The notes beneath the pieces were generated by a model. It did no database searches. It had not been told where the DNA came from and saw nothing but the letters and a program-made list of their open reading frames with translations. Made by a program: the position numbers and the translations under genes. Source: a virus. Taken from it: a stretch of 41,827 nucleotides of DNA. This document shows positions 1-36,802 of this stretch, piece by piece. Position 1 is the stretch's first letter. Each line of letters begins with the position of its first letter. Where the stretch lies: UHGV virus genome UHGV-0360402. One strand, written 5' to 3'.

Positions 1-83
1 ATTCCTTTATACGCAATACATTTACTTTCCTCTTTTGATGATCTTAAATGTCTTATTTTTCGTAATGTGTATAACAAGGAATA

Positions 84-602
84 GTGATGAAATTAAAAAA
101 ATGTCTTCTGCCTGTGGCAATGTTAGCGTCATTTACTCTGGCAGGATGCCAGTCAAATGCTGATGATCATGCCGCCGATGTTTATCAAACCGATCAACTG
201 AATACCAAACAAGAAACTAAAACCGTTAATATTATTTCCATTCTTCCCGCAAAAGTTGCCGTAGACAACGCCCAAAATAAACGGAACGCACAAGCCTTCG
301 GCGCGCTTATTGGCGCTGTCGCTGGCGGTGTTATCGGCCACAACGTCGGGTCTGGCAGCAATTCCGGAACGACAGCAGGTGCAGTTGGCGGCGGAGCTGT
401 TGGCGCAGCAGCGGGTTCTATGGTGAATGATAAAACCTTAGTGGAAGGTGTTTCTTTAACATATAAGGAAGGCACCAAAGTGTATACCTCCACCCAGGTG
501 GGTAAAGAGTGCCAGTTTACGACAGGTTTAGCCGTTGTTATTACCACGACGTATAACGAAACGCGTATTCAGCCAAATACCAAATGTCCTGAAAAGAGCT
601 AA
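84..602 (+). CDS. yfgH: Host outer-membrane lipoprotein, glycine-zipper type (YfgH-like)
   Basis: ATG at 87 with AAGGA RBS (GTG at 84); signal peptide with lipobox LAGC; Gly/Ala-rich zipper GALIGAVAGGVIGH; 172 aa and position before a 179-aa gene match E. coli yfgH-yfgI as I recall them. Confidence 0.6.
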   Translation: MMKLKKCLLPVAMLASFTLAGCQSNADDHAADVYQTDQLNTKQETKTVNIISILPAKVAVDNAQNKRNAQAFGALIGAVAGGVIGHNVGSGSNSGTTAGAVGGGAVGAAAGSMVNDKTLVEGVSLTYKEGTKVYTSTQVGKECQFTTGLAVVITTTYNETRIQPNTKCPEKS

Positions 603-617
603 TAATCAGGAGGAGTC

Positions 618-1157
618 ATGAAGAAAGTTTTTCTTTGCGCCATCTTAGCCTCCTTAAGCTATCCGGCTATCGCCTCATCATTGCAGGATCAACTCTCGGC
701 TGTCGCAGAAGCGGAACAGCAAGGTAAAAATGAAGAGCAAAGGCAGCATGACGAATGGGTCGCGGAGCGCAACAGGGAAATCCAGCAAGAGAAGCAACGT
801 CGCGCAAACGCCCAGGCCGCGGCTAATAAAAGAGCGGCAACGGCAGCAGCGAATAAGAAAGCTCGTCAGGATAAACTGGACGCCGAAGCCACTGCGGACA
901 AAAAACGCGATCAAAGTTATGAAGATGAGCTACGTAGCTTAGAGATTCAGAAGCAAAAACTGGCGCTGGCGAAAGAAGAAGCCCGCGTTAAGCGCGAAAA
1001 CGAATTTATCGATCAGGAACTGAAGCACAAAGCTGCGCAAACCGATGTGGTGCAATCTGAAGCTGACGCAAACAGAAATATGACTGAAGGCGGTCGCGAT
1101 CTGATGAAAAGCGTGGGTAAAGCAGAAGAGAACAAATCGGACAGCTGGTTTAACTAA
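618..1157 (+). CDS. yfgI: Host secreted coiled-coil protein (YfgI-like)
   Basis: AGGAGG RBS 7 nt before ATG; N-terminal signal peptide; 179 aa; followed by intrinsic terminator; symbol from recalled size and synteny. Confidence 0.55.
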   Translation: MKKVFLCAILASLSYPAIASSLQDQLSAVAEAEQQGKNEEQRQHDEWVAERNREIQQEKQRRANAQAAANKRAATAAANKKARQDKLDAEATADKKRDQSYEDELRSLEIQKQKLALAKEEARVKRENEFIDQELKHKAAQTDVVQSEADANRNMTEGGRDLMKSVGKAEENKSDSWFN

Positions 1158-1195
1158 GCGATGTCAGTAACTTCAAGCCTATGATTCGTGAGTAT

Positions 1196-1229
1196 AAAAA
1201 ACCCTCTGTAGTAACAGAGGGTTTTGTTC
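1196..1229. terminator. Bidirectional rho-independent terminator (host intergenic)
   Basis: A-run, stem ccctctgt/acagaggg, T-run. Confidence 0.7.
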
Positions 1230-1250
1230 ATTCATAGTACAGGGTTCAAA

Positions 1251-1265
1251 TCATTCCCACTCAAT
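1251..1265 (-). other. Candidate att core: displaced copy of guaA 3' end (reverse strand reads ATT GAG TGG GAA TGA = I-E-W-E-stop)
   Basis: Minus strand encodes IEWE-stop, the conserved GMP synthase C-terminus, but is preceded in frame by a stop, so only the last codons are present; sits exactly at the host/phage boundary. Confidence 0.5.
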
Positions 1266-1352
1266 TATTTACGGCATGCATAACCAATTGACTGGTAACA
1301 ACTTTCTATAACCTTATTTTCACCGTACCGTTTTATATACCGTCACCGGAAA

Positions 1353-1850
1353 TCAGTGCCACGATTTTTGCTTCTTCAGTGAATCGTATTGCTGCTCGCA
1401 GAATTCCCCTGCGATACGATACTTTTCAGCCTCAGCTGCTGTTGCGTTGTAAACTCGGTTGCTTTCTTCAAGCATGTCGGCGAGCACACCGATGACCTTG
1501 CTGGCTGGCGTGCCAGGGGGGAAAGATCCGGTATAGTGTTCGGCGAGCCGCCTGGTTTTGTCAAGCTCGGCGCGCATGCTATCAGCAGCGGAATTAGCAT
1601 ACTCAGCATCAGCACGCGCCGCATCGATACGGGATTGTGCTTCACGTTCAATTTGTGTTTTCTCCTGCTCACGCTGTGACCTTAACTTATCATCAGCCTG
1701 TTTCTGATCTTCCTTCGCCTGAGCATACCCGGCATCGTACTGGCGGCTGCCATGCACATTCCAGGCAACAACGCAGCTGGCCACCAGAGCAGCAAGCATC
1801 GACACGATAAGCAACTGTTTCCAGTATGCTTTCACGAATGCCTTGATCAT
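1353..1850 (-). CDS. Rz-like i-spanin
   Basis: N-terminal TM helix then charged coiled-coil; last gene of lysis cassette; ATGA overlap with upstream gene; contains embedded +1 lipoprotein ORF. Confidence 0.75.
   Translation of the reverse strand: MIKAFVKAYWKQLLIVSMLAALVASCVVAWNVHGSRQYDAGYAQAKEDQKQADDKLRSQREQEKTQIEREAQSRIDAARADAEYANSAADSMRAELDKTRRLAEHYTGSFPPGTPASKVIGVLADMLEESNRVYNATAAEAEKYRIAGEFCEQQYDSLKKQKSWH
1376..1624 (-). CDS. Rz1-like o-spanin lipoprotein embedded in Rz (+1 frame)
   Basis: MRRVLMLSMLIPLLIAC signal with lipobox LIAC followed by Pro-rich mature region; entirely inside Rz; no strong SD, start uncertain. Confidence 0.55.
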   Translation of the reverse strand: MRRVLMLSMLIPLLIACAPSLTKPGGSPNTIPDLSPLARQPARSSVCSPTCLKKATEFTTQQQLRLKSIVSQGNSASSNTIH

Positions 1851-2071
1851 ATACTTACCTTCGGCTGAAATCGGCGAACGTTAATTGGCTCACCATATGG
1901 CCATGACCAATTCAGCCAGGTAAATGTTTTCAGCTCGCACATCGCATCGAAAAATTCACCAGGATCGATGTCGGAATAGCTGCAAACTATTTCCAGACCA
2001 CGTTCTGTTTCTTGCAAAGCAACTGTATCTGTTTCCCAGCGGGGAATGAGCAAAGAAAATAGTTTATTCAT
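1847..2071 (-). CDS. Hypothetical 74-aa protein in lysis cassette
   Basis: ATG 2071 overlaps endolysin stop (ATGA); AAGGTG RBS; coupled to Rz start. Confidence 0.5.
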
Positions 2072-2694
2072 AAAAGCACCTTCTTGGCCGAAAGATACCG
2101 TACACGGCGATCGTCGATGCCGTTCCGGCCACCATTGATAATCAGAGTTACACGTGCAATATCGCCGGTATACTTCATGCATCCTTTGCTGGCGAAGAAC
2201 CACGCCGCGCTACGAGCCGCGTATTCGTCCTGCACCAACAGTTCAGGATTCTCCAGCAGGTCCACTTTCAGGCCGTTTCCGCAATCACGATAGTTATTCA
2301 AACCGGTAATCTGGATAAGTCCGCGGCCACGGTAATTCCAGCCATCACCAGAGGCATTGTTCCCCATGCGTTTGCTGTACACCAGATTGGCAATCGCACG
2401 CTGGCGCTCAGGTGGCAATGGTGGCTCACCTGCACGACGACCCAATGCGTTAGCCTGTCCCTGAGTAAGACGACCGGCACGAACGAAGTTAGCCAGTCCG
2501 GTGACGCTGTAATTGAAATTCTCCTGCAACCTGGTGAAGCCACCAGACTCATGCCCGACCTGAGCAATAAACATTGCCTGATCTTCGGGTTTTCTGATAC
2601 CAAACTCTTTCATCGCAGAAGTTATATGCGAGAACCAGCGTGCGGCCAGAGCCTCGCTAATACCAGCAGCTCGCTGGAATTGTTTAATCTCCAT
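2068..2694 (-). CDS. Endolysin, GH19 chitinase-like fold
   Basis: Start ATG 2694 (MEIKQF) with GAGGT RBS; motifs [12 protein letters not shown] and [11 protein letters not shown] typical of family-19 lysozyme-type endolysins; long ORF-track version is an N-terminal over-extension. Confidence 0.8.
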
Positions 2695-2992
2695 GTTTAG
2701 ACCTCGATGTTTTGAAAATCTGAACAACGTTACCGCGTGTTTTAATAACCGCGGCAAGCATGACAGCGTTGATAATGACCTCAGATAAATCCACAGCCAT
2801 TGGCGTACGTAACCAGATTGCATAGGCGACACGAACAGGAATACTGGCCGCAGCAACAATAAGGAAATAAGCAAGCCACCCTCCCCATCTTCGATGTTGA
2901 GAGCCGTTACGCCGGAATGTGACAACGCGAATTGCTATGCCAGTACAAATAATTGCATTGGTGATAAGCAAAACAAGCTCATTAGTTACCAT
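2684..2992 (-). CDS. Small membrane protein, holin or antiholin-like
   Basis: 102 aa with 2-3 predicted TM helices; overlaps both neighbours. Confidence 0.6.
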
Positions 2993-3383
2993 CGCCTTTT
3001 CTCCCAGGAATTAACTGGCGTGGATTATCAGAACGGTGATAGAGCCATATACCAATTCGCACTGCGACAATTGCTGACACGAATGCGCCAGCAGAGAAAA
3101 CAATCCCTTTCTCGAAAGAGTCCTGCGTGATGGTAGGTATCATGCTGGCTATTCCGATAAGAATTGATGTTGTTGGTTTGTAAAAGAGAAGACCACAAAG
3201 AAAGCTGAGTATCGACAAGAGTACACGACGACGAACAGGATACTCTACAGCAGAGGTAACAAATATTACCGCACCAGCCAGAGCACCGAGAGCCACCTCT
3301 GGCGGAACGCCGTAGACGACAGAGGCCAGCGCACCCAAGCTTAACCCTTGATTCAGTGAATCCGCCGTAACCGTGCCATTCAT
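2982..3383 (-). CDS. Holin-like membrane protein
   Basis: 133 aa from ATG 3383 (GTG alternative at 3392); several hydrophobic helices; first gene after tailspike. Confidence 0.6.
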   Translation of the reverse strand: MNGTVTADSLNQGLSLGALASVVYGVPPEVALGALAGAVIFVTSAVEYPVRRRVLLSILSFLCGLLFYKPTTSILIGIASMIPTITQDSFEKGIVFSAGAFVSAIVAVRIGIWLYHRSDNPRQLIPGRKGDGN

Positions 3384-3480
3384 GGTAACCACCGTTTATT
3401 GTGCATAAAAACCCCCTTAGAAGATGAGGTCCATCATACACAATAAACCATTTACGGATAATAATTACCTAAACTTGGTC

Positions 3481-6132
3481 TTATTTTGATTCCAATAGTT
3501 CGAGTCGCTCTTCAATACGATCGCATCGGCGGCGCTGATATGCAGCCTCAAGCCAAGCGCACTGGTCAGGCCGTATGCCCCATGAACTACCCGCTTTTTT
3601 AACCAGCCTCTGTTCTCCGGTGTCATATTCGACGGTGACCAACTCACCAGACGCATCGGTAATCTCTTTAGTCGCGATTACCGGCTCAAAAATATCGTCC
3701 CACTCGTCATAGCAAAGAAGGCCAAATCTGGTTCCATCAATTCCGTGCGCCAGGAATACATCTCTTACCTGCTGAGCCATGACGCCAAAATGCCATCTGG
3801 CACCATCGCCCTTCATGGATATAGCGTCGAGCCATCGATACGCCACAACAGAAATATCGCCCCAGGCATCAAGAATGCTGTCTCTATCAGAAGAAAGCAT
3901 TTCACTTAAATCTGATATTGCCTCGGGATTGGTTTTCAGCGTGGCATCTGATGAAACGGTTGGGGCATTTGCAAAGTAGGCGTCTTTAATACGAAACGAT
4001 GCCTGACCAAAATTATAGGTATTGTCAGCAAACGGGCGAAGACCTGTATTATAAAACCGCCAGCGTATGGTTCCTCCCAATGCTGTCGGGTCGCTGTTGC
4101 ATGCAATATCCACCGTGGTGGCAGACCTAAACACAGAAGAACTACCGCCCAATACCAAGCTATTTGCGCTAGCTGTAGCCTGCTGGTCAAGGACCAATAT
4201 TTTCTGAGAGTTTGTAGTTGCACCGGCATATGATGATGCAGTGATGCGGTTTAATTGGTTTGTATCAGGATCTGCGTTTTGCTGAATGGTTAAGTTAGAT
4301 GCCCACTGTGCCGGTCGCTGGCGCACAAATACAAAGTCACCAGAAGGATTAGTTGCAACCAAATAACTAATGCCACTATCAGATGAATAATAGTTGACTA
4401 TAAAAGTCTGATTATTCGCATTCAGTATTTCAACATATGTGCTGGAAGGGATTGCCACGCCAGATATATCAGCAATGCTGACAGTCCCTGTGTAAAAATT
4501 AAATGCCTTCTGACTCATCTCCTGCATATAGCGAAGAATTTCAGTCATGTTAGTGAACAACGTACCATCTACAGGGTTAACAATCCCCTTCGCACTACGG
4601 GGATATACCCCAATGCTCGCGTGATCGATATCAAATCCGCGGTAAAGCCTGGATGCAGGTGTAAAATCGATAGCATCTTTATCAGTGGAGAAATCTTCGA
4701 AAATAACCAAACCTGAATTGTAAGGTTCAGAGCCAGTTCTTTCCTGATGAATGTAAAGTGAATAAATGGATTTTCCATCCTGAGAAACACAAACGCCTTC
4801 ATTTTCTATGCGAGTGACGTTCAATCCTGCGGCTTTCATTAAATCCATCATGGCCTGAGGATGAAGCATTGATTCAGTTCGCTTTGTACCGTCAGGGTTA
4901 AAAACTTTGCTGCCCTGATATTCGTTATATCCTGCGCTTCCTGCCCCATCAGCTATGAAGCCGCCATAGCCGCAGACAAAGTAGTTATCACCTACCGCAA
5001 TACCCTGACGCTTGTTGAAATAAGGCGCATAAGGTGAGGTGCTTTTAGTTACATACCCAACATCATGTAACGGCAGCGTTATAGTTGACAGGCGATTGAA
5101 ACCACTGTCGAACACTGCAAGTACAGTTCTTGTGATTTTCTGTCCTACTTCTGGCGCATTCTGCTCAACGAGCCATATACCTCTTCTGTAGCTGAACTGG
5201 TTGAATAATCCAACATCATGGTTTTGTACAAGAGGCAGATTGCTTCCGTATAATGCCCCCTCCATATTAAATTCACGCAGTATTCCGTTTGTGTGACCAA
5301 CAAACATTTTTTTTGGGCCATAGTCTGACGTAACCACGATTCCTTCAGCAGCGAAGCCTGGGCCGCCAGCCTGAACATAGAAATAACCTTGATAAATACC
5401 AGATATGTTAAATACTGCGACGACATTATTCGTCTGTTTAGGCTCAAATGGATAAGTGATGTATATCAAATCTTCGCTAACGCAGAATCCTTGAGGATAC
5501 ATATAAGTTGCTGACGGGTTAGCAGCCATAATCGCATCATATTCAGGAAAAAGAAGCGGCATCGTAGCTACAATCTTTCTTTGGTGATTTGTAAAAATAT
5601 CGTTTTTAGCGCTGTTAGGTGTAGGCGTTACACCTCCAGTAAAAAGATCATCAACATAACCTTTATTGACAGCATCGTTTCTGTCAGTGGCATTTGCTAG
5701 ATTTGATATCTTATTATTTTTTGCATCATAATAGTTAGCCAGAATGCTTGGTTTTATAAGTGCTAACCTCATCCATGAAAAACACTTTTGAATAAGCATT
5801 GTCAGTTTATCGAACGCGTCTTCATGTACCTCAGCGAAGAACTTACCCTGATTACGCAAATCAGTATCCTGCGTAACCGGGAGCTCTCGTGATATAGAAA
5901 TATGATAACCGTTAGCCAACGCCTTCGACAGAATTACATTACCGCCATTATATCCTCCAGCATTGGTTACTGTGTAGTCAGTATCCAGAACCAATTCTGT
6001 TACGTTCCCGTTCAGGTCAGACACCTGAACAACCAGGTCGGATTTTTTGAAAATACGGAAGGTATACGGAAATGATGTCGTAGCTCCGTTACCAGTGTAT
6101 TCGTTGTGGTCAACTTCGGTTGAGACCGTCAT
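3481..6132 (-). CDS. Tailspike / receptor-binding protein (883 aa)
   Basis: GGAG RBS; N-terminal ~150 aa resemble the T7 gp17-type adaptor-binding domain (FPYTF, TDYTV motifs); long C-terminal part likely receptor-binding or depolymerase. Confidence 0.8.
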   Translation of the reverse strand: MTVSTEVDHNEYTGNGATTSFPYTFRIFKKSDLVVQVSDLNGNVTELVLDTDYTVTNAGGYNGGNVILSKALANGYHISISRELPVTQDTDLRNQGKFFAEVHEDAFDKLTMLIQKCFSWMRLALIKPSILANYYDAKNNKISNLANATDRNDAVNKGYVDDLFTGGVTPTPNSAKNDIFTNHQRKIVATMPLLFPEYDAIMAANPSATYMYPQGFCVSEDLIYITYPFEPKQTNNVVAVFNISGIYQGYFYVQAGGPGFAAEGIVVTSDYGPKKMFVGHTNGILREFNMEGALYGSNLPLVQNHDVGLFNQFSYRRGIWLVEQNAPEVGQKITRTVLAVFDSGFNRLSTITLPLHDVGYVTKSTSPYAPYFNKRQGIAVGDNYFVCGYGGFIADGAGSAGYNEYQGSKVFNPDGTKRTESMLHPQAMMDLMKAAGLNVTRIENEGVCVSQDGKSIYSLYIHQERTGSEPYNSGLVIFEDFSTDKDAIDFTPASRLYRGFDIDHASIGVYPRSAKGIVNPVDGTLFTNMTEILRYMQEMSQKAFNFYTGTVSIADISGVAIPSSTYVEILNANNQTFIVNYYSSDSGISYLVATNPSGDFVFVRQRPAQWASNLTIQQNADPDTNQLNRITASSYAGATTNSQKILVLDQQATASANSLVLGGSSSVFRSATTVDIACNSDPTALGGTIRWRFYNTGLRPFADNTYNFGQASFRIKDAYFANAPTVSSDATLKTNPEAISDLSEMLSSDRDSILDAWGDISVVAYRWLDAISMKGDGARWHFGVMAQQVRDVFLAHGIDGTRFGLLCYDEWDDIFEPVIATKEITDASGELVTVEYDTGEQRLVKKAGSSWGIRPDQCAWLEAAYQRRRCDRIEERLELLESK

Positions 6133-6236
6133 GTTAAATCTCCAGATAGTCGCAGCACCCGTTGCGCCGCATATCTGGTTATTCTATTACCTGAAAAACC
6201 ACATATGGATAGATAATCCATAAATACGAAAAGATA

Positions 6237-6251
6237 TTACCTTTCAGGTGA
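6237..6251. promoter_or_regulatory. Operator-like site TTACCtttcaGGTGA
   Basis: Member of TTACC-N5-GGTAA family (one mismatch); 40 bp upstream of LexA box. Confidence 0.5.
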
Positions 6252-6290
6252 TTTGCAAAACGTGCTGGATAGCAAACAAATTATTTGCTA

Positions 6291-6306
6291 CTGTATAAAT
6301 ATACAG
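6291..6306 (+). promoter_or_regulatory. LexA (SOS) box CTGTATAAATATACAG
   Basis: CTGT-N8-ACAG with AT-rich centre, 18/20 to TACTGTATATATATACAGTA; 22 bp upstream of ATG 6328. Confidence 0.8.
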
Positions 6307-6327
6307 TTATTGCATGGAGAAGATAAG

Positions 6328-6585
6328 ATGCAGCAGTATCACTATCCACTGGAAGACGGATTTACCGAAAGGATTCACACGCCGGGAGGCGTCAGGTCAC
6401 TGGTGGAGGGATCGCACTTGATGAAATTACTCCGGGATCTCGATAAGGATGGATTTAATGTCGATGGCCCACTTGCCGAACTGACTGCACTGATTAACTA
6501 CGTCACCAGCTCACAGATGTCTATGCGGGATCTGCAAACACATCTCGACTATTGTGCCGAACAATTACGAAAACAAACCCGGTAA
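6328..6585 (+). CDS. Small SOS-controlled protein (85 aa), stand-alone copy of the C-terminal module shared by the two antirepressor genes; candidate antirepressor
   Basis: GGAGA RBS; LexA box in promoter; alignable to C-termini of 7736-8392 and 9256-10194 products (LM-LL-DG-AELT-RD-QTH). Confidence 0.7.
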   Translation: MQQYHYPLEDGFTERIHTPGGVRSLVEGSHLMKLLRDLDKDGFNVDGPLAELTALINYVTSSQMSMRDLQTHLDYCAEQLRKQTR

Positions 6586-6591
6586 ATTTAA

Positions 6592-6609
6592 AGGCCGCAA
6601 GAGCGGCCT
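6592..6609. terminator. Hairpin between convergent genes (aggccgc-aaga-gcggcct)
   Basis: GC stem directly after stop of 6328-6585; overlaps 3' end of minus-strand gene. Confidence 0.5.
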
Positions 6610-7336
6610 ATCGTTTCGCTTTGTGCTCATCCCAGCACGTTTTGCACCATGCCATTAAGCCGTCCGCATTTTGATTATTAGGGTAAAAGCTGGTTCGTTT
6701 TCTGCGGACATTACAAATTGGGCACCACTTCATATGGCGTGTATTCTTTGGGCCATCGAGACACCTTGCACACCATTTAGTCAATCCATCTGGATTTTTT
6801 GACGATTTCCTGAATTTTTCATATGGAAGGTTTATTCTGCATCGCAAGCACTGCTTGCTACCACTTGAAACTCTGTTAGCTGATTCTTCTTTTGGCGGCG
6901 ATACAGAAGGTATTCTTGCTGGCTCTGATATTGCCTGAGGTGCTTTTTTAGATGACTGAGACGATATGTCATCACCAGGGAATCTTCCATGATATGCCGG
7001 ACGCGTTGACACTCCAGGTGGAATCTCAGCTGTAAACGGCTTTGGCTGAATCAGTTGCCTCTCTTTTGCTAACTCCTGCTGTTTATAATATGTCTGGATT
7101 ACCGCACTATCATAAGCAGGAGGTGCGGAAATATTAGGCGCATTACCTCCAGTTTTTTGAAACTGAGTAGAGGTGTGTTCTATCACCTGTGTACGATTAA
7201 TCGTTATCTCCCCATCTTCGGTCTTTATCGTTTTGTTATGATTAACGACCGTACGATCAGAGATCTTAGTCTTGTTCTGGTTGATAACGTAAATAATCAC
7301 CGCAACCACACCAACAACTATCCAGAAAACTTCCAT
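6608..7336 (-). CDS. Membrane-anchored protein with two C-terminal CxxC...WCxxC zinc-ribbon repeats (242 aa)
   Basis: GAGGA RBS; N-terminal TM helix; tandem Cys motifs CLRC...WCARC and CPIC...WCKTC; operator at 7357-7371 just upstream. Confidence 0.65.
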   Translation of the reverse strand: MEVFWIVVGVVAVIIYVINQNKTKISDRTVVNHNKTIKTEDGEITINRTQVIEHTSTQFQKTGGNAPNISAPPAYDSAVIQTYYKQQELAKERQLIQPKPFTAEIPPGVSTRPAYHGRFPGDDISSQSSKKAPQAISEPARIPSVSPPKEESANRVSSGSKQCLRCRINLPYEKFRKSSKNPDGLTKWCARCLDGPKNTRHMKWCPICNVRRKRTSFYPNNQNADGLMAWCKTCWDEHKAKR

Positions 7337-7356
7337 TGCTTTTCCTCACAATAACA

Positions 7357-7371
7357 TTACCTTAAAGGTAA
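7357..7371. promoter_or_regulatory. Operator-like palindrome TTACCttaaaGGTAA
   Basis: Perfect half-sites; between divergent genes 6608-7336 and 7736-8392. Confidence 0.6.
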
Positions 7372-7449
7372 TATCTTGCTTTCAGGTGATCAAGCGTTAA
7401 ACGCAATCAACCAAATACGGTTGATTTTAATATTTCTTCGCGTTTATCA

Positions 7450-7464
7450 TTACCTTTGCGGTAA
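7450..7464. promoter_or_regulatory. Operator-like palindrome TTACCtttgcGGTAA
   Basis: Perfect half-sites; abuts candidate promoter TTACAT-18-TAGTAA at 7467-7496. Confidence 0.6.
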
Positions 7465-7497
7465 ATTTACATTGCACTCCTCTTGTGCCATAGTAAT

Positions 7498-7577
7498 CGG
7501 GCACTGGCAAAATCCAGTGCCGGGATTGGTCTCCCGGATTACTAAGTGGCGCATACCACGCCAGACGTGGTTTTTTT
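7498..7577 (+). ncRNA. Candidate small RNA or terminated leader upstream of antA-like gene
   Basis: Promoter-like elements 7467-7496; two stable hairpins (gcactgg/ccagtgc; cggga/tcccg) then terminator hairpin ccacg/cgtgg plus T7; the overlapping 110-aa ORF lacks an RBS. Confidence 0.4.
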
Positions 7578-7735
7578 ATGCGTATAGCACAGTCATGCCA
7601 GAATTATGGTGGGCTGAATGGGGGTCCGAAAGGACGCCGGTACCACTTAGGCCGGTAAGACCAACTCCGTTCAGTTCACCACCATCTGATTGGTCTCAGC
7701 GGTGGTGATGTAATTCGCTAAGTGGAGACGCCATC

Positions 7736-8392
7736 ATGAACGCTCAACTCATCCCCGTATTCAACGGCACTATATCTAACGAAACAGCCCTACTTTGTAA
7801 TGCCCGCGATCTGCACGCTTTTTTAGGTGTTAAAAAGGTGTTTGCAGCATGGATTACAAATCGCATATCAGAATACGAATTCATTGAAAATCAAGACTAT
7901 ATTTTGCTTTCCAATTTGGGAAAGCAAACATCTGGTAGAGGCGGCCACAACCGCAAAGAGTACCACCTCACCCTTGATACAGCCAAAGAGCTGGCGATGG
8001 TCGAGCGTAACGAAAAAGGTCGCCAGGTGCGACGCTACTTCATTGAATGCGAGAAACGTTTAAGACAACAAGAAACAAAAGTGGAGAAGGTCTTGTCAGG
8101 CTTCATGCCCGCCATTATGGAGGCGATCAAGCTGGAAGACAAAAAAGAATACAGCGCCCCACTGAAGCCCGGCTACCGTAGCCTGATTCATTCGCCGTCT
8201 GGTGTTCTCGGCCTGACGGAGAACTCACTGCTGATGAATTTGCTGAACCAGTTACAGGAAGACGGGCACGACGTATCGGGCGCGGCGGCGGAACTGACCA
8301 CCATGTTCTGCTACATCGTCGGTGTGAGCAAATGCCTGCGTGATATCCAGACCCACGCGGAGTACATCAACGACAAGGCAGGGTTCTTCTGA
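7736..8392 (+). CDS. Antirepressor-type protein: AntA-like N-terminal domain fused to shared C-terminal module (218 aa)
   Basis: GGAG RBS; N-terminus matches AntA-type pattern ([39 protein letters not shown]); C-terminal 78 aa near-identical to C-terminus of 9256-10194 product. Confidence 0.8.
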
Positions 8393-8416
8393 CAGAACGG
8401 CGGCACAGGGATGTGC
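8163..8416. repeat. Inverted repeat, left arm (pairs with 9232-9486)
   Basis: About 254 bp, roughly 96% identical to reverse complement of right arm; covers the 3' coding end of the antirepressor plus 25 bp past its stop. Confidence 0.85.
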
Positions 8417-8464
8417 CTTTAAATAATTCTGTACGATTGCAGACTGGGGGTGAATAGCGTACTA

Positions 8465-8479
8465 TTACCTTAAAGGTAA
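8465..8479. promoter_or_regulatory. Operator-like palindrome TTACCttaaaGGTAA
   Basis: Identical to site at 7357; overlaps -10 of candidate promoter TTGCAG-17-TACTAT (8437-8465). Confidence 0.6.
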
Positions 8480-8491
8480 AGGAGGCGCGAT

Positions 8492-8659
8492 ATGACAGCG
8501 TTGAAAAATCGTACTCAGCACAATGAACAAGCCAAGCAATGCTGGGATGTCATTGGAAAAGTTATGCTTGGCCGCGCAAGCAAAGAGCGCGACAAGGATA
8601 TGGTTTACCAGACAGGAACATCTTTCAGCGACTTCAAGGCGGCATTTCGCTCCAAATAG
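8492..8659 (+). CDS. Small hypothetical protein (55 aa), first gene of IR-flanked cassette
   Basis: AAGGAGG RBS; below ORF-track size cut-off; GC and codon use phage-like (CGN arginines). Confidence 0.55.
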   Translation: MTALKNRTQHNEQAKQCWDVIGKVMLGRASKERDKDMVYQTGTSFSDFKAAFRSK

Positions 8660-22659: not shown

Positions 22660-22710
22660 CTTCTTTCTCCATTAGTGGGTCTGTTACGACCCACAGGTTA
22701 ATAACAGGCG

Positions 22711-27192: not shown

Positions 27193-27270
27193 ACAGCAGG
27201 ACGCCATTGCGATGACTTCATGCTGTAAACCAGTACAGCCACGGAAGGCATAACTCATTGCTTCCAGTTC

Positions 27271-27305: not shown

Positions 27306-27725
27306 ATGAAGACAATTGATATGTTGGCTAAGTATCTAAATGAATGGCCATTAAAATATTCTCGTATCGTTCAGGCTGAAGACTGCATTTTTTATGGCGT
27401 TCTTGCTGGTAATGAAATGCATTACGAAGTAATTCAGAGTGAGGGACTGGCTGGGTTAACTCTTAGCGAAGACCATGGTACTAGCGTTACGTTCCATGAC
27501 TGGATAACAGCACAACGTTCTGAAATGGAAAAAGGCGATGTTTTTGATATTTCTCGCGCTGTTTACGCTAAAGCAAAAAGTGATAATGATTACATGAGCG
27601 AACACTTATACAACATGAAGTTGCAATGCCTGCATGCGGCGCTTATTCAGAATGGGCACTTCGATAAAACAAGTGCCATCAATATTGCGGAAGCCATCAA
27701 CGCTGGATTTAATGCCATTAAGTAA
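27306..27725 (+). CDS. Hypothetical moron protein (139 aa), opposite strand to packaging genes
   Basis: AAGGTGAG RBS; own terminator downstream. Confidence 0.65.
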   Translation: MKTIDMLAKYLNEWPLKYSRIVQAEDCIFYGVLAGNEMHYEVIQSEGLAGLTLSEDHGTSVTFHDWITAQRSEMEKGDVFDISRAVYAKAKSDNDYMSEHLYNMKLQCLHAALIQNGHFDKTSAINIAEAINAGFNAIK

Positions 27726-35698: not shown

Positions 35699-35929
35699 TC
35701 ATGAGTAGAAGAAGTATGCCAGTTCTGCTTTTGAGCGCAGCCATTGTCTTGTTTTACAGGCTTTAAAAAGCCCATTCATCAATACCTTACCTGGCATTTT
35801 GCGCTTACCTGTTAAGTGAGTCTGGATATAGTGACTCGTCGTTCCGGCTTCCTGTGCGAAGGCTTCACGCTCATCCGGAGTAAGTGCAAGCCAGTGCTTT
35901 TTGAAATCGAAATGTCCGTTATCGCTCAT
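35699..35929 (-). CDS. Cro-like small HTH regulator (76 aa)
   Basis: Divergent from repressor gene across triple-operator region; first gene of leftward early operon. Confidence 0.6.
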   Translation of the reverse strand: MSDNGHFDFKKHWLALTPDEREAFAQEAGTTSHYIQTHLTGKRKMPGKVLMNGLFKACKTRQWLRSKAELAYFFYS

Positions 35930-35965: not shown

Positions 35966-36028
35966 TCACCCATAAGGTAACAAAAATCAAGGATAGTTAC
36001 CTATGGGGTGCATTTACCTGTTGGGTAA
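35966..36028. promoter_or_regulatory. Tripartite operator region between cro-like and repressor genes
   Basis: Three sites: TCACCcataaGGTAA (35966-35980), TTACCtatggGGTGC (35997-36011), TTACCtgttgGGTAA (36014-36028); overlap a candidate leftward promoter. Confidence 0.65.
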
Positions 36029-36083: not shown

Positions 36084-36668
36084 ATGAAAAGTATCCAGGA
36101 CGTCCGCAGGCAAAATCTCAACGACTTGATCGACCGTGAATTCAATGGTGTTCAGACGCGGATGGCAGAAAAACTTGGAACTCAGGCAAATCTGGTAAAC
36201 CGCTGGGCTCTTGGCAAGAAGGTTATCGGCGACCAGGTTGCGCGAAAAATTGAAGCTGCCGCCAATAAACCCCGTAACTGGCTTGATATCGATCGCTCGC
36301 TTTCTCAGGAAGGTTTTCAGCCTGTCGGCCCAAGCGACATTGGTCAGCTGGCAGCTCACAACCTGGAACGCTGGATGAGTGAAAGCCGCGACCTTTCAAC
36401 TCAGGGAAAACTTCACCGCGCATCCGGCGTCGCCCAGGTGACAATAAGCCGCCTGTTAAACAATGAGGTCAGCGTTTCCATTTCCACCCTGGAGAATGTT
36501 GCATCTGCATTCGGGCGTCACGGATATGAACTACTGATTCATCCACATGACCCTGCAACTATCAACTATGACCGCTCGCGCTACGCATTGTTACCTGAAA
36601 CAGAGAAGGCAAAGATCGAAAGTTACATTGAATTTGTCATCAACCAGAACGAAAAAAACAAACAATAA
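36084..36668 (+). CDS. Prophage repressor candidate (194 aa), HTH, no S24 peptidase domain
   Basis: N-terminal HTH (GVQTRMAEKLGTQANLVNRWALGKK) and second HTH-like segment; no Ser/Lys autocleavage motifs; divergent from cro-like gene; own terminator. Confidence 0.65.
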   Translation: MKSIQDVRRQNLNDLIDREFNGVQTRMAEKLGTQANLVNRWALGKKVIGDQVARKIEAAANKPRNWLDIDRSLSQEGFQPVGPSDIGQLAAHNLERWMSESRDLSTQGKLHRASGVAQVTISRLLNNEVSVSISTLENVASAFGRHGYELLIHPHDPATINYDRSRYALLPETEKAKIESYIEFVINQNEKNKQ

Positions 36669-36725: not shown

Positions 36726-36740
36726 TTACCTAACGGGTAA
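36726..36740. promoter_or_regulatory. Operator-like palindrome TTACCtaacgGGTAA
   Basis: Perfect half-sites; upstream of -35 of rightward early promoter. Confidence 0.6.
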
Positions 36741-36759: not shown

Positions 36760-36788
36760 TTGACATCAAACCAGATACGCATAATTAT
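36760..36788 (+). promoter_or_regulatory. Candidate rightward early promoter TTGACA-17-AATTAT
   Basis: Consensus -35; -10 overlaps operator at 36788. Confidence 0.55.
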
Positions 36789-36802
36789 TACCTCAACGGT
36801 AA
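36788..36802. promoter_or_regulatory. Operator-like palindrome TTACCtcaacGGTAA
   Basis: Perfect half-sites; overlaps -10 and start region. Confidence 0.6.

Follow-up and report, generated by a model that had tools for sequence, protein, structure and literature searches.

In the stretch of DNA analysed here (the window, 41,827 nucleotides), a small gene, ant, lies between a divergent tailspike gene and a convergent gene for a 242-aa protein. It is preceded by an operator-like palindrome, a predicted promoter and a LexA (SOS) box that ends 20 nt upstream of its start codon, and it is followed by a GC-rich hairpin (Table 1), at the equivalent of which a terminator is annotated in phage epsilon15. 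RefSeq lists the same coding sequence as WP_001188254.1, a “hypothetical protein”. The immunity repressor gene, rep, and a divergent cro-like gene are located far from ant, and two further genes, ant2 and ant3, encode larger proteins with a C-terminal domain of the Ant type.

Integrated at guaA, the window represents an Escherichia coli prophage of the phiV10/epsilon15 type (Uetakevirus), and both its att core and its integration at guaA agree with those of phiV10 and ZX5. Its limits are the host genes yfgH/yfgI on one side and the beginning of the integrase gene of the prophage on the other. Identities of 95–99% were found to the phages TL-2011b, phiV10, ZX5, and PAS61, the latter two being assigned to the genus Uetakevirus (epsilon15-like podophages). 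Matches to E. coli chromosomes were obtained as well, with 531 of the 5,426 complete E. coli genomes containing a matching stretch. The match to E. coli SCU-101 (99.7–100%) is confined to positions 1–9207 and 17220–41827, the middle part being different.

Table 1. Features of the Uetakevirus prophage, with positions as counted in the 41,827-nt window
Feature	Position	Strand	Basis or remark
att core ATTGAGTGGGAATGATT	1249-1265		core reported for phiV10, epsilon15 and ZX5
operator-like palindrome TTACCTTTCAGGTGA	6237-6251		one mismatch (GGTGA); between divergent tailspike gene and ant
predicted -35 hexamer of the ant promoter, TGGATA	6266-6271	+	17 nt upstream of the -10; inferred from conservation
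predicted extended -10, TGcTACTGT	6286-6294	+	conservation and match to 186 p95
LexA (SOS) box TACTGTATAAATATACAGTT	6289-6308 (core CTGTATAAATATACAG, 6291-6306)		spans both the -10 and the predicted start of transcription
ant, 85-aa SPC32H-type antirepressor (predicted)	6328-6585	+	ATG 6328, TAA 6585, Shine-Dalgarno GGAG 6316-6319
GC-rich hairpin AGGCCGCTCTTGCGGCCT	6592-6609		between convergent ant and 242-aa gene; likely bidirectional terminator
exact operator palindrome (7450-7464) abutting promoter-like site TTTACA-17-TGcCATAGT (7466-7494)	7450-7494	+	
isrK-type sRNA with terminator	7501-7577	+	Rfam RF01394, 67.7 bits (gathering score 50)
37-codon upstream ORF of the ant2 leader	7595-7708	+	
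C4-type antisense RNA	7602-7686	+	Rfam RF01695, 61.2 bits (gathering score 45)
ant2, 218 aa, N-terminal AntA and C-terminal Ant domain (residues 135-216)	7736-8392	+	Pfam AntA, E=4e-26
ant3, 312 aa, P22_AR_N and C-terminal Ant domain (residues 230-310)	9256-10194	-	Pfam P22_AR_N, E=2.5e-45
sar antisense RNA	10196-10263	+	Rfam RF00262, 45.2 bits (gathering score 43); exactly between arc-like ORF and ant3
arc-like ORF, 55 aa	10267-10434	-	phrog_228 “Arc-like repressor”, E=3e-5 (weak); no Pfam match
divergent mnt/arc-like gene	10525-10986	+	Pfam Arc, E=1e-14
operator-like palindrome	26694		ahead of portal operon
phage tRNA-Arg	27031-27107		
pair of operator-like palindromes	29884, 29902		small-terminase gene
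pair of operator-like palindromes	33645, 33707		between replication-protein gene and next early gene
cro-like regulator, 76 aa, divergent from rep	35699-35929	-	phrog_35 “transcriptional repressor”, E=6e-13; RefSeq CDS at matching place
three operator-like palindromes	35966-35980, 35997-36011, 36014-36028		between rep and divergent cro-like gene
rep, 194-aa immunity repressor, SPC32H Rep type	36084-36668	+	full-length homology
two exact operator palindromes	36726-36740, 36788-36802		3′ of rep and before the recombination-gene operon

A preliminary description of this DNA had pointed to a match with the E. coli SOS box that overlaps the promoter of the 85-aa gene, and both observations were borne out. 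The 20-mer has two mismatches to the 20-bp E. coli consensus TACTGTATATATATACAGTA, and in none of 100 shuffles did any site come within three mismatches of this consensus. The bare core pattern CTGT-N8-ACAG alone is not rare in the window, since its three occurrences (0.53 expected) were also reached in 2 of 100 shuffles. No second SOS box was found in the 41.8-kb window, as all other CTG..CAG 20-mers carry at least eight mismatches. The core-pattern matches at 22681 and 27223 were dismissed as chance because they have GC-rich centres, at least eight mismatches to the 20-mer and no counterpart in phage SPC32H, where no site comparable to the SOS box was found except the one upstream of ant.

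The region upstream of ant was aligned for nine sequences (the window, TL-2011b, SPC32H, SPC32N, epsilon15, Tyrion, BUCT554, and two Klebsiella phages), whose hosts belong to Escherichia, Salmonella, Enterobacter, and Klebsiella. The SOS box occupies identical columns in all nine, while the flanks diverge; the left half of the box reads ATGT rather than CTGT in the two Klebsiella phages. SPC32H and SPC32N differ here by a single base, a C to A change in the CAG half-site at the position equivalent to C6304. According to what Kim and Ryu are said to have found in 2013, this box mutation leads to constitutive Ant synthesis and commits SPC32N to lytic growth.

The same alignment suggests a promoter for ant that would consist of the -35 hexamer TGGATA, a 17-nt spacer and the extended -10 TGcTACTGT; both this -10 and the predicted start site would lie under the box. 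Within TGGATA, the bases T, G, G, A, and the final A are invariant, as are TG (6286–6287) and TA.TGT (6289–6294) of the extended -10, and the sequence between the conserved promoter elements varies. The string TGcTACTGT recurs in phage 186, where it is annotated as the -10 of p95, a promoter under LexA control. A -35-like hexamer directly after the palindrome (TTGCAA, 6253–6258) was considered as well and rejected in favor of TGGATA/TGcTACTGT because the hexamer 17 nt downstream of it is not conserved.

The product of ant is a predicted antirepressor and the orthologue of Ant from SPC32H. It is 86.7% identical (tblastn) to the product of SPC32H ant, which is labelled “anti-repressor protein” in GenBank, and its residues 2–84 match chain E (“Anti-repressor protein”) of the PDB entry 5D50, a crystal structure of SPC32H Ant together with its repressor, with E=1.4e-46; it further matches phrog_450 (E=7e-48). 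When 50,697 phage records were searched with Ant (tblastn, E≤1e-5), the matches listed were confined to phages classified as Uetakevirus, to E. coli phages that are unclassified and to some Klebsiella prophages. An Ant domain was found in 35 of these records, and all 35 are among the 37 that contain a homologue of Rep. Neither Pfam nor NCBIfam holds a model for the Ant family, phrog_450 is listed in PHROGs as “unknown function”, and most of the named homologues in a large protein collection are called “hypothetical protein”, as are nearly all named database copies, the RefSeq copy of this gene included; the practical value of the present analysis lies in the annotation of this family.

Rep shares 41.8% identity with the rep product of SPC32H over 98% of its length and matches chain A (“Repressor”) of 5D50 over residues 1–190 of 194 (E=4e-42) as well as the entry 5D4Z, and it is 100% identical to the repressor of phage ZX5. 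Repressors of the SPC32H type comprise a DNA-binding domain, a dimerisation domain and a C-terminal domain for tetramerisation and Ant binding, for which the identities between the two proteins are 52% in the N-terminal part, 32% in the middle and 43% in the C-terminal part. The N-terminal domains share the segment NLVNRW, probably the recognition helix, without any change, and the aromatic residues F187/F190 at the tetramer interface of SPC32H Rep correspond to Y181/F184. In Pfam, Rep matched HTH families only (HTH_3 at residues 106–147 and a weaker N-terminal HTH match at 21–61), and no match to an S24 peptidase domain was obtained. Rep was thus rightly described beforehand as a repressor with HTH motifs that lacks the S24 autocleavage domain, and RecA would therefore be unable to trigger its self-cleavage.

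A classical route of induction, in which RecA stimulates the self-cleavage of Rep and the LexA box upstream of ant is incidental, is accordingly very improbable in our judgement. No point in its support was found. Apart from the missing S24 domain and the full-length homology to SPC32H Rep, it is at odds with the fixed position of the box across host genera, and two articles attribute the inactivation of SPC32H Rep to Ant and not to cleavage (PMC7380047, PMC9638917).

Candidate operators of Rep are spread over the window in the form of a 15-bp palindrome, TTACC-N5-GGTAA, that occurs in ten exact copies, where 0.025 would be expected, and in three copies with one mismatch. They are found in the rep/cro region and ahead of most operons. 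Among the three between rep and the cro-like gene, one is exact, one has one mismatch and one has two, and SPC32H carries three palindromes at the matching position. More generally, SPC32H has TTACC-N5-GGTAA at syntenic sites, and these sites are annotated as repressor-binding in the GenBank record of epsilon15, which includes the counterparts of the copies at 36726 and 36788. The palindrome beside ant is kept in nine of the nine aligned upstream regions, and the equivalent site in epsilon15 carries the annotation protein_bind “repressor”.

A repressor-type site so close to ant raises the question of dual control, in which both LexA and the prophage repressor, the latter bound at 6237–6251, would act on ant. 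The switch might be sharpened by the resulting double-negative feedback between Rep and Ant, or ant might be coupled through Rep to the tailspike promoter on the other side. The conservation of the site in all nine phages, the strong excess of exact palindromes, which cluster around rep/cro and precede most operons, the repressor annotation in epsilon15, the further copy that abuts the -35 of the isrK/ant2 promoter and the shared recognition helix NLVNRW all favor such an arrangement. However, the copy beside ant has one mismatch, and it is centred near -57, outside the core promoter predicted from TGGATA/TACTGT, so that it may serve the divergent tailspike operon only or may add control by Rep. 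We regard dual control of ant as possible but rather unlikely.

The E. coli prophage very probably uses a mechanism of the SPC32H type, in which Ant that is released from LexA control disables a non-cleavable Rep. The sequence elements, their conservation and the orthology are observed in the prophage and its relatives, and the biochemical steps are carried over from SPC32H. Rep, a tetrameric HTH repressor without a peptidase domain, would maintain lysogeny, and ant would be kept silent because the LexA box covers its extended -10 and start site, both of which host LexA bound at 6289–6308 would occlude. Upon DNA damage, RecA would be activated, LexA would cleave itself and ant would be transcribed. 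Ant would then bind the C-terminal tetramerisation domain of Rep and split the tetramer into dimers that hold DNA poorly, after which the TTACC-N5-GGTAA operators would be freed and the lytic genes expressed.

These steps correspond to what the literature relates of such switches: that an antirepressor is made once LexA has been cleaved and inhibits the repressor through protein–protein contact (PMC7380047), that Rep binds DNA as a tetramer, which tetrameric Ant breaks by binding two Rep dimers (PMC9638917), and that the C-terminal tetramerisation domain of Rep is at the same time its Ant-binding domain (PMC9986798). Induction by LexA-derepressed antirepression had been proposed in the preliminary description, and the proposal gains support from the SOS box, the 87% identity of Ant to its SPC32H counterpart and the homology of Rep. 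The box, TG-n-TACTGT and TGGATA are invariant or nearly so in nine phages from four host genera. Phage ZX5, with an identical Rep and an identical LexA box, is inducible by mitomycin C, and overexpression of its repressor blocks lytic growth (PMC9782041). For prophages of the phiV10 species, a DNA-damaging microcin gave 21- to 47-fold induction, and recognition of the switch would explain the response of phiV10-type prophages to DNA-damaging agents and bacteriocins. No observation contradicts this mechanism. Because this Rep is only 42% identical to that of SPC32H, its binding by Ant is put forward as presumptive; likewise, the E. coli copies presumably behave in the same way, and the exact promoter hexamers are predictions.

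The two additional genes carry the Ant domain behind other N-terminal domains and under other controls. In ant2, the C-terminal part is 43% identical to the small Ant over 74 aa (E=6e-17) and matches phrog_450 (E=4e-36). Transcription from the promoter-like site upstream is predicted to start at the first base of the isrK match (7501), and the a1/b1 target match in the ant2 leader reached 39.9 bits, below the gathering score of 46.7. The Ant domain of ant3 was detected by a tblastn search of the window with Ant and also matches phrog_450 (E=3e-35). The last 255 bp of ant3 recur, inverted and with 96% identity, at the end of ant2, as seen against the SCU-101 copy, which itself matches ant2 of the window at 99.99%. 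Residues 1–222 of ant3 are shared with the Ant proteins of CUS-3 and Stx phages; residues 223–312 found no match in either, and this C-terminal part is common to TL-2011b only. A control cassette resembling that of P22 immI accompanies ant3 and spans positions 10196–10986.

Since the Ant domains of ant2 and ant3 are intact, these genes could add to or replace the small Ant in induction. In the stronger form of this idea, the small Ant would be dispensable and induction would proceed mainly via ant2 or ant3, whose C-terminal domain is the same. When ORF4 of ZX5, the homologue of ant2 with a Bro-N and an Ant domain, was overexpressed, lysogeny fell about 1000-fold, in a study that assayed only this large Bro-N antirepressor and never mentions LexA (PMC9782041). 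The LexA box, however, is located at the small ant only, and ant2 and ant3 stand behind RNA and Arc/Mnt controls. In the immI regions of P1 and P22, such RNA and Arc/Mnt controls serve superinfection immunity and are not known to serve SOS induction. Moreover, phiV10, SPC32H, and epsilon15 show a single place with an Ant domain in tblastn, namely the small ant, and the annotated records of SPC32H and epsilon15 contain neither ant2 nor ant3. We therefore consider it improbable that the small Ant is dispensable, and retain LexA-controlled Ant as the inducing antirepressor.

As ant2 and ant3 share the Ant domain on differing N-terminal domains, this domain looks like an exchangeable module that would specify the target repressor. 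Going further, we tentatively suggest, while holding it to be somewhat less than an even chance, that the Ant fold of about 75 aa is a portable Rep-targeting domain that the prophage uses three times: alone under LexA, fused to AntA under isrK/C4 and a promoter with a Rep operator, and fused to P22_AR_N under Mnt, Arc, and sar. A Rep-controlled ant2 would then provide a lock-in stage after Ant made in the SOS response has started derepression. If true, three unrelated inputs, i.e., the SOS response, antisense RNA immunity, and Arc/Mnt immunity, would converge on one non-cleavable repressor. The occurrence of three Ant-domain genes under three controls is the part of this prophage that deserves a modest follow-up.

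Among known systems, the closest relative is the switch of SPC32H (Uetakevirus SPN1S), a lytic switch of Ant and Rep that was reportedly described by Kim and Ryu in 2013 (J Virol 87:11775) and Kim et al. in 2016 (PNAS 113:E2480). Kim and Ryu are said to have found that LexA represses ant and that Rep, which stays uncleaved in the SOS response, loses its activity through Ant. Judged by its sequence, the element in the window is the orthologue of this switch, which has already been described both genetically and structurally in the same phage genus; the switch recognised in the preliminary description is thus right but not novel, because its true relative is the Ant/Rep pair of SPC32H. Ant (87%) and Rep (42% over the full length) are both orthologous and the three-domain layout of Rep is the same. 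In both epsilon15-like genomes, ant diverges from the tailspike gene and is remote from the immunity region, the LexA box lies equally far from the start codon and TTACC-N5-GGTAA palindromes occupy syntenic sites. The two systems differ in the central 8 bp of the box (ATAAATAT in the window vs ATGTTTAT in SPC32H) and in the host, which is E. coli here, and Rep has diverged much more than Ant. SPC32H also lacks the two extra Ant-domain antirepressors and their control cassettes.

The preliminary description had likened the switch to Tum of coliphage 186 and to the antirepressors of Gifsy-type phages, and the likeness holds for the regulatory logic, which makes both functional analogues, but not for homology to Tum. 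In phage 186, a small antirepressor is likewise under LexA control and acts against a repressor that cannot be cleaved, and the p95 promoter has a near-identical architecture, its SOS box enclosing TGcTACTGT as the -10. Between the boxes of 186 and SPC32H, 1 of 20 positions differs. However, 186 is a P2-like myovirus with a repressor of another family. No significant similarity between Ant and Tum was found by BLASTP (16.9 bits, E=0.056), and 186 was not among the tblastn matches of Ant although it is present in the collection of 50,697 records; the product of ant2 gave E=3.9 against Tum. Gifsy-1, Gifsy-3, and Fels-2 (Lemire et al. 2011, PMC3121763) share an antirepressor that is repressed by LexA, is encoded away from the immunity region and targets an uncleaved repressor, a likeness of described regulation rather than of aligned sequences. 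Among the tblastn matches of Ant listed (E≤1e-5), there was no Gifsy or Fels record. Ant thus works like the antirepressors of 186 and the Gifsy phages but belongs to a protein family other than that of Tum, and presumably also other than that of the Gifsy antirepressors (GfoA/GfhA).

The E. coli phage ZX5 (PMC9782041) is much closer, with a Rep (ORF21) that is 100% identical, a small Ant that is 98.8% identical and an identical LexA box. Its anti-repressor ORF4 is the counterpart of ant2, with the same C-terminal Ant domain and the same isrK/C4 leader, and it differs by a Bro-N domain where ant2 has AntA; in ZX5, moreover, no gene lies between ant and the isrK promoter. In the study of ZX5, the small ant was annotated as hypothetical, and neither this gene nor its LexA box was recognised (PMC9782041). 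With respect to the larger antirepressors, ant2 stands behind isrK and C4 RNAs and a short ORF as in immI of P1 (c4 RNA, icd, and ant) and in isrK-orf45-anrP of Gifsy-1 (PMC4825925), and ant3 resembles immI of P22 (mnt, arc, sar RNA, and ant) in its P22_AR_N domain, in a sar RNA over the ribosome-binding region of ant and in an arc-like ORF with a divergent Arc/Mnt-like gene. In contrast to P22 and to P1/Gifsy-1, the C-terminal part of both ant2 and ant3 has been replaced by the Ant domain of the Uetakevirus type. While the LexA/ant/Rep switch as such is already known from SPC32H, the arrangement of three antirepressors may be new.

The palindrome TTACC-N5-GGTAA is present in the window in 10 exact copies, against 0.025 expected by chance, together with three near-exact copies, and each of these 13 lies at or close to an operon start. 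The same palindrome occupies syntenic sites in the Salmonella phage SPC32H and is annotated as repressor sites in epsilon15, which implies that the early and late operons would be under the direct control of one repressor. It also implies that the SPC32H immunity repressor Rep and that of the window may read the same operator, although the two proteins share only 42% identity.

Features of the antirepressor region and positions of the operator-like palindrome
Feature	Coordinates	Strand	Description
242-aa Cys-rich protein	6608-7336	minus	phrog_6762, unknown function
ant2 cassette	7450-8392		AntA domain and C-terminal Ant domain; second antirepressor gene
ant3 cassette	9256-10986	minus (ant3)	P22_AR_N and C-terminal Ant domain; third antirepressor gene
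Segment	9208-17219		ant3/mnt cassette and two large virion genes
TTACC-N5-GGTAA, exact and near-exact copies	6237, 7357, 7450, 8465, 26694, 29884, 29902, 33645, 33707, 35966, 36014, 36726, 36788		

Besides the SOS box in front of the small antirepressor gene ant, the window contains CTGTAAACCAGTACAG at 27223-27238; this site is upstream, by about 70 bp, of a gene on the opposite strand (27306-27725; phrog_4846, unknown function). This site was set aside as probably due to chance because it departs from the 20-bp SOS consensus at eight positions and because nothing comparable occurs in SPC32H apart from the site upstream of ant. The two Klebsiella members, phages BUCT711 and Kp4865-1, have an SOS box about 40-60 nt upstream of ant that carries ATGT rather than CTGT as its left half plus one extra base. 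LexA may exert weaker or altered control in these members.

The Cys-rich protein, with weak matches to endonuclease VII and a Lar-like zinc-ribbon, is encoded between ant and the isrK promoter, whereas no gene intervenes there in the E. coli phage ZX5, so that transcription from ant on into isrK/ant2 is possible in the latter. In the window, a hairpin at 6592-6609, a putative terminator, would block such read-through.

The segment with the ant3 cassette looks like a mosaic replacement: megablast found no counterpart to it in E. coli SCU-101, and the remaining prophage of that strain is 99.7-100% identical. Among complete E. coli genomes, just 12 contain the arrangement of 6150-11650 as a whole at a coverage of at least 80%. 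The 3' end of ant3 (9232-9486) is an inverted duplicate of that of ant2, with 96% DNA identity to the SCU-101 copy of ant2, itself a 99.99% match to the window's ant2, which would place the partner at about 8163-8417. This near-identity suggests that the common domain has recently undergone recombination or gene conversion.

Upstream of ant2 lie a promoter adjoined by the Rep-operator palindrome, an isrK-type sRNA, a C4-type antisense RNA and an upstream ORF of 37 codons, and the cassette resembles both P1 immI and Gifsy-1 isrK-anrP. ZX5 has the same leader, but its antirepressor carries an N-terminal Bro-N instead of AntA domain. An arc-like ORF, a match to sar RNA and a divergent gene of the Mnt/Arc type accompany ant3 and make up with it a cassette resembling P22 immI, in which the C-terminal part of Ant has been swapped.
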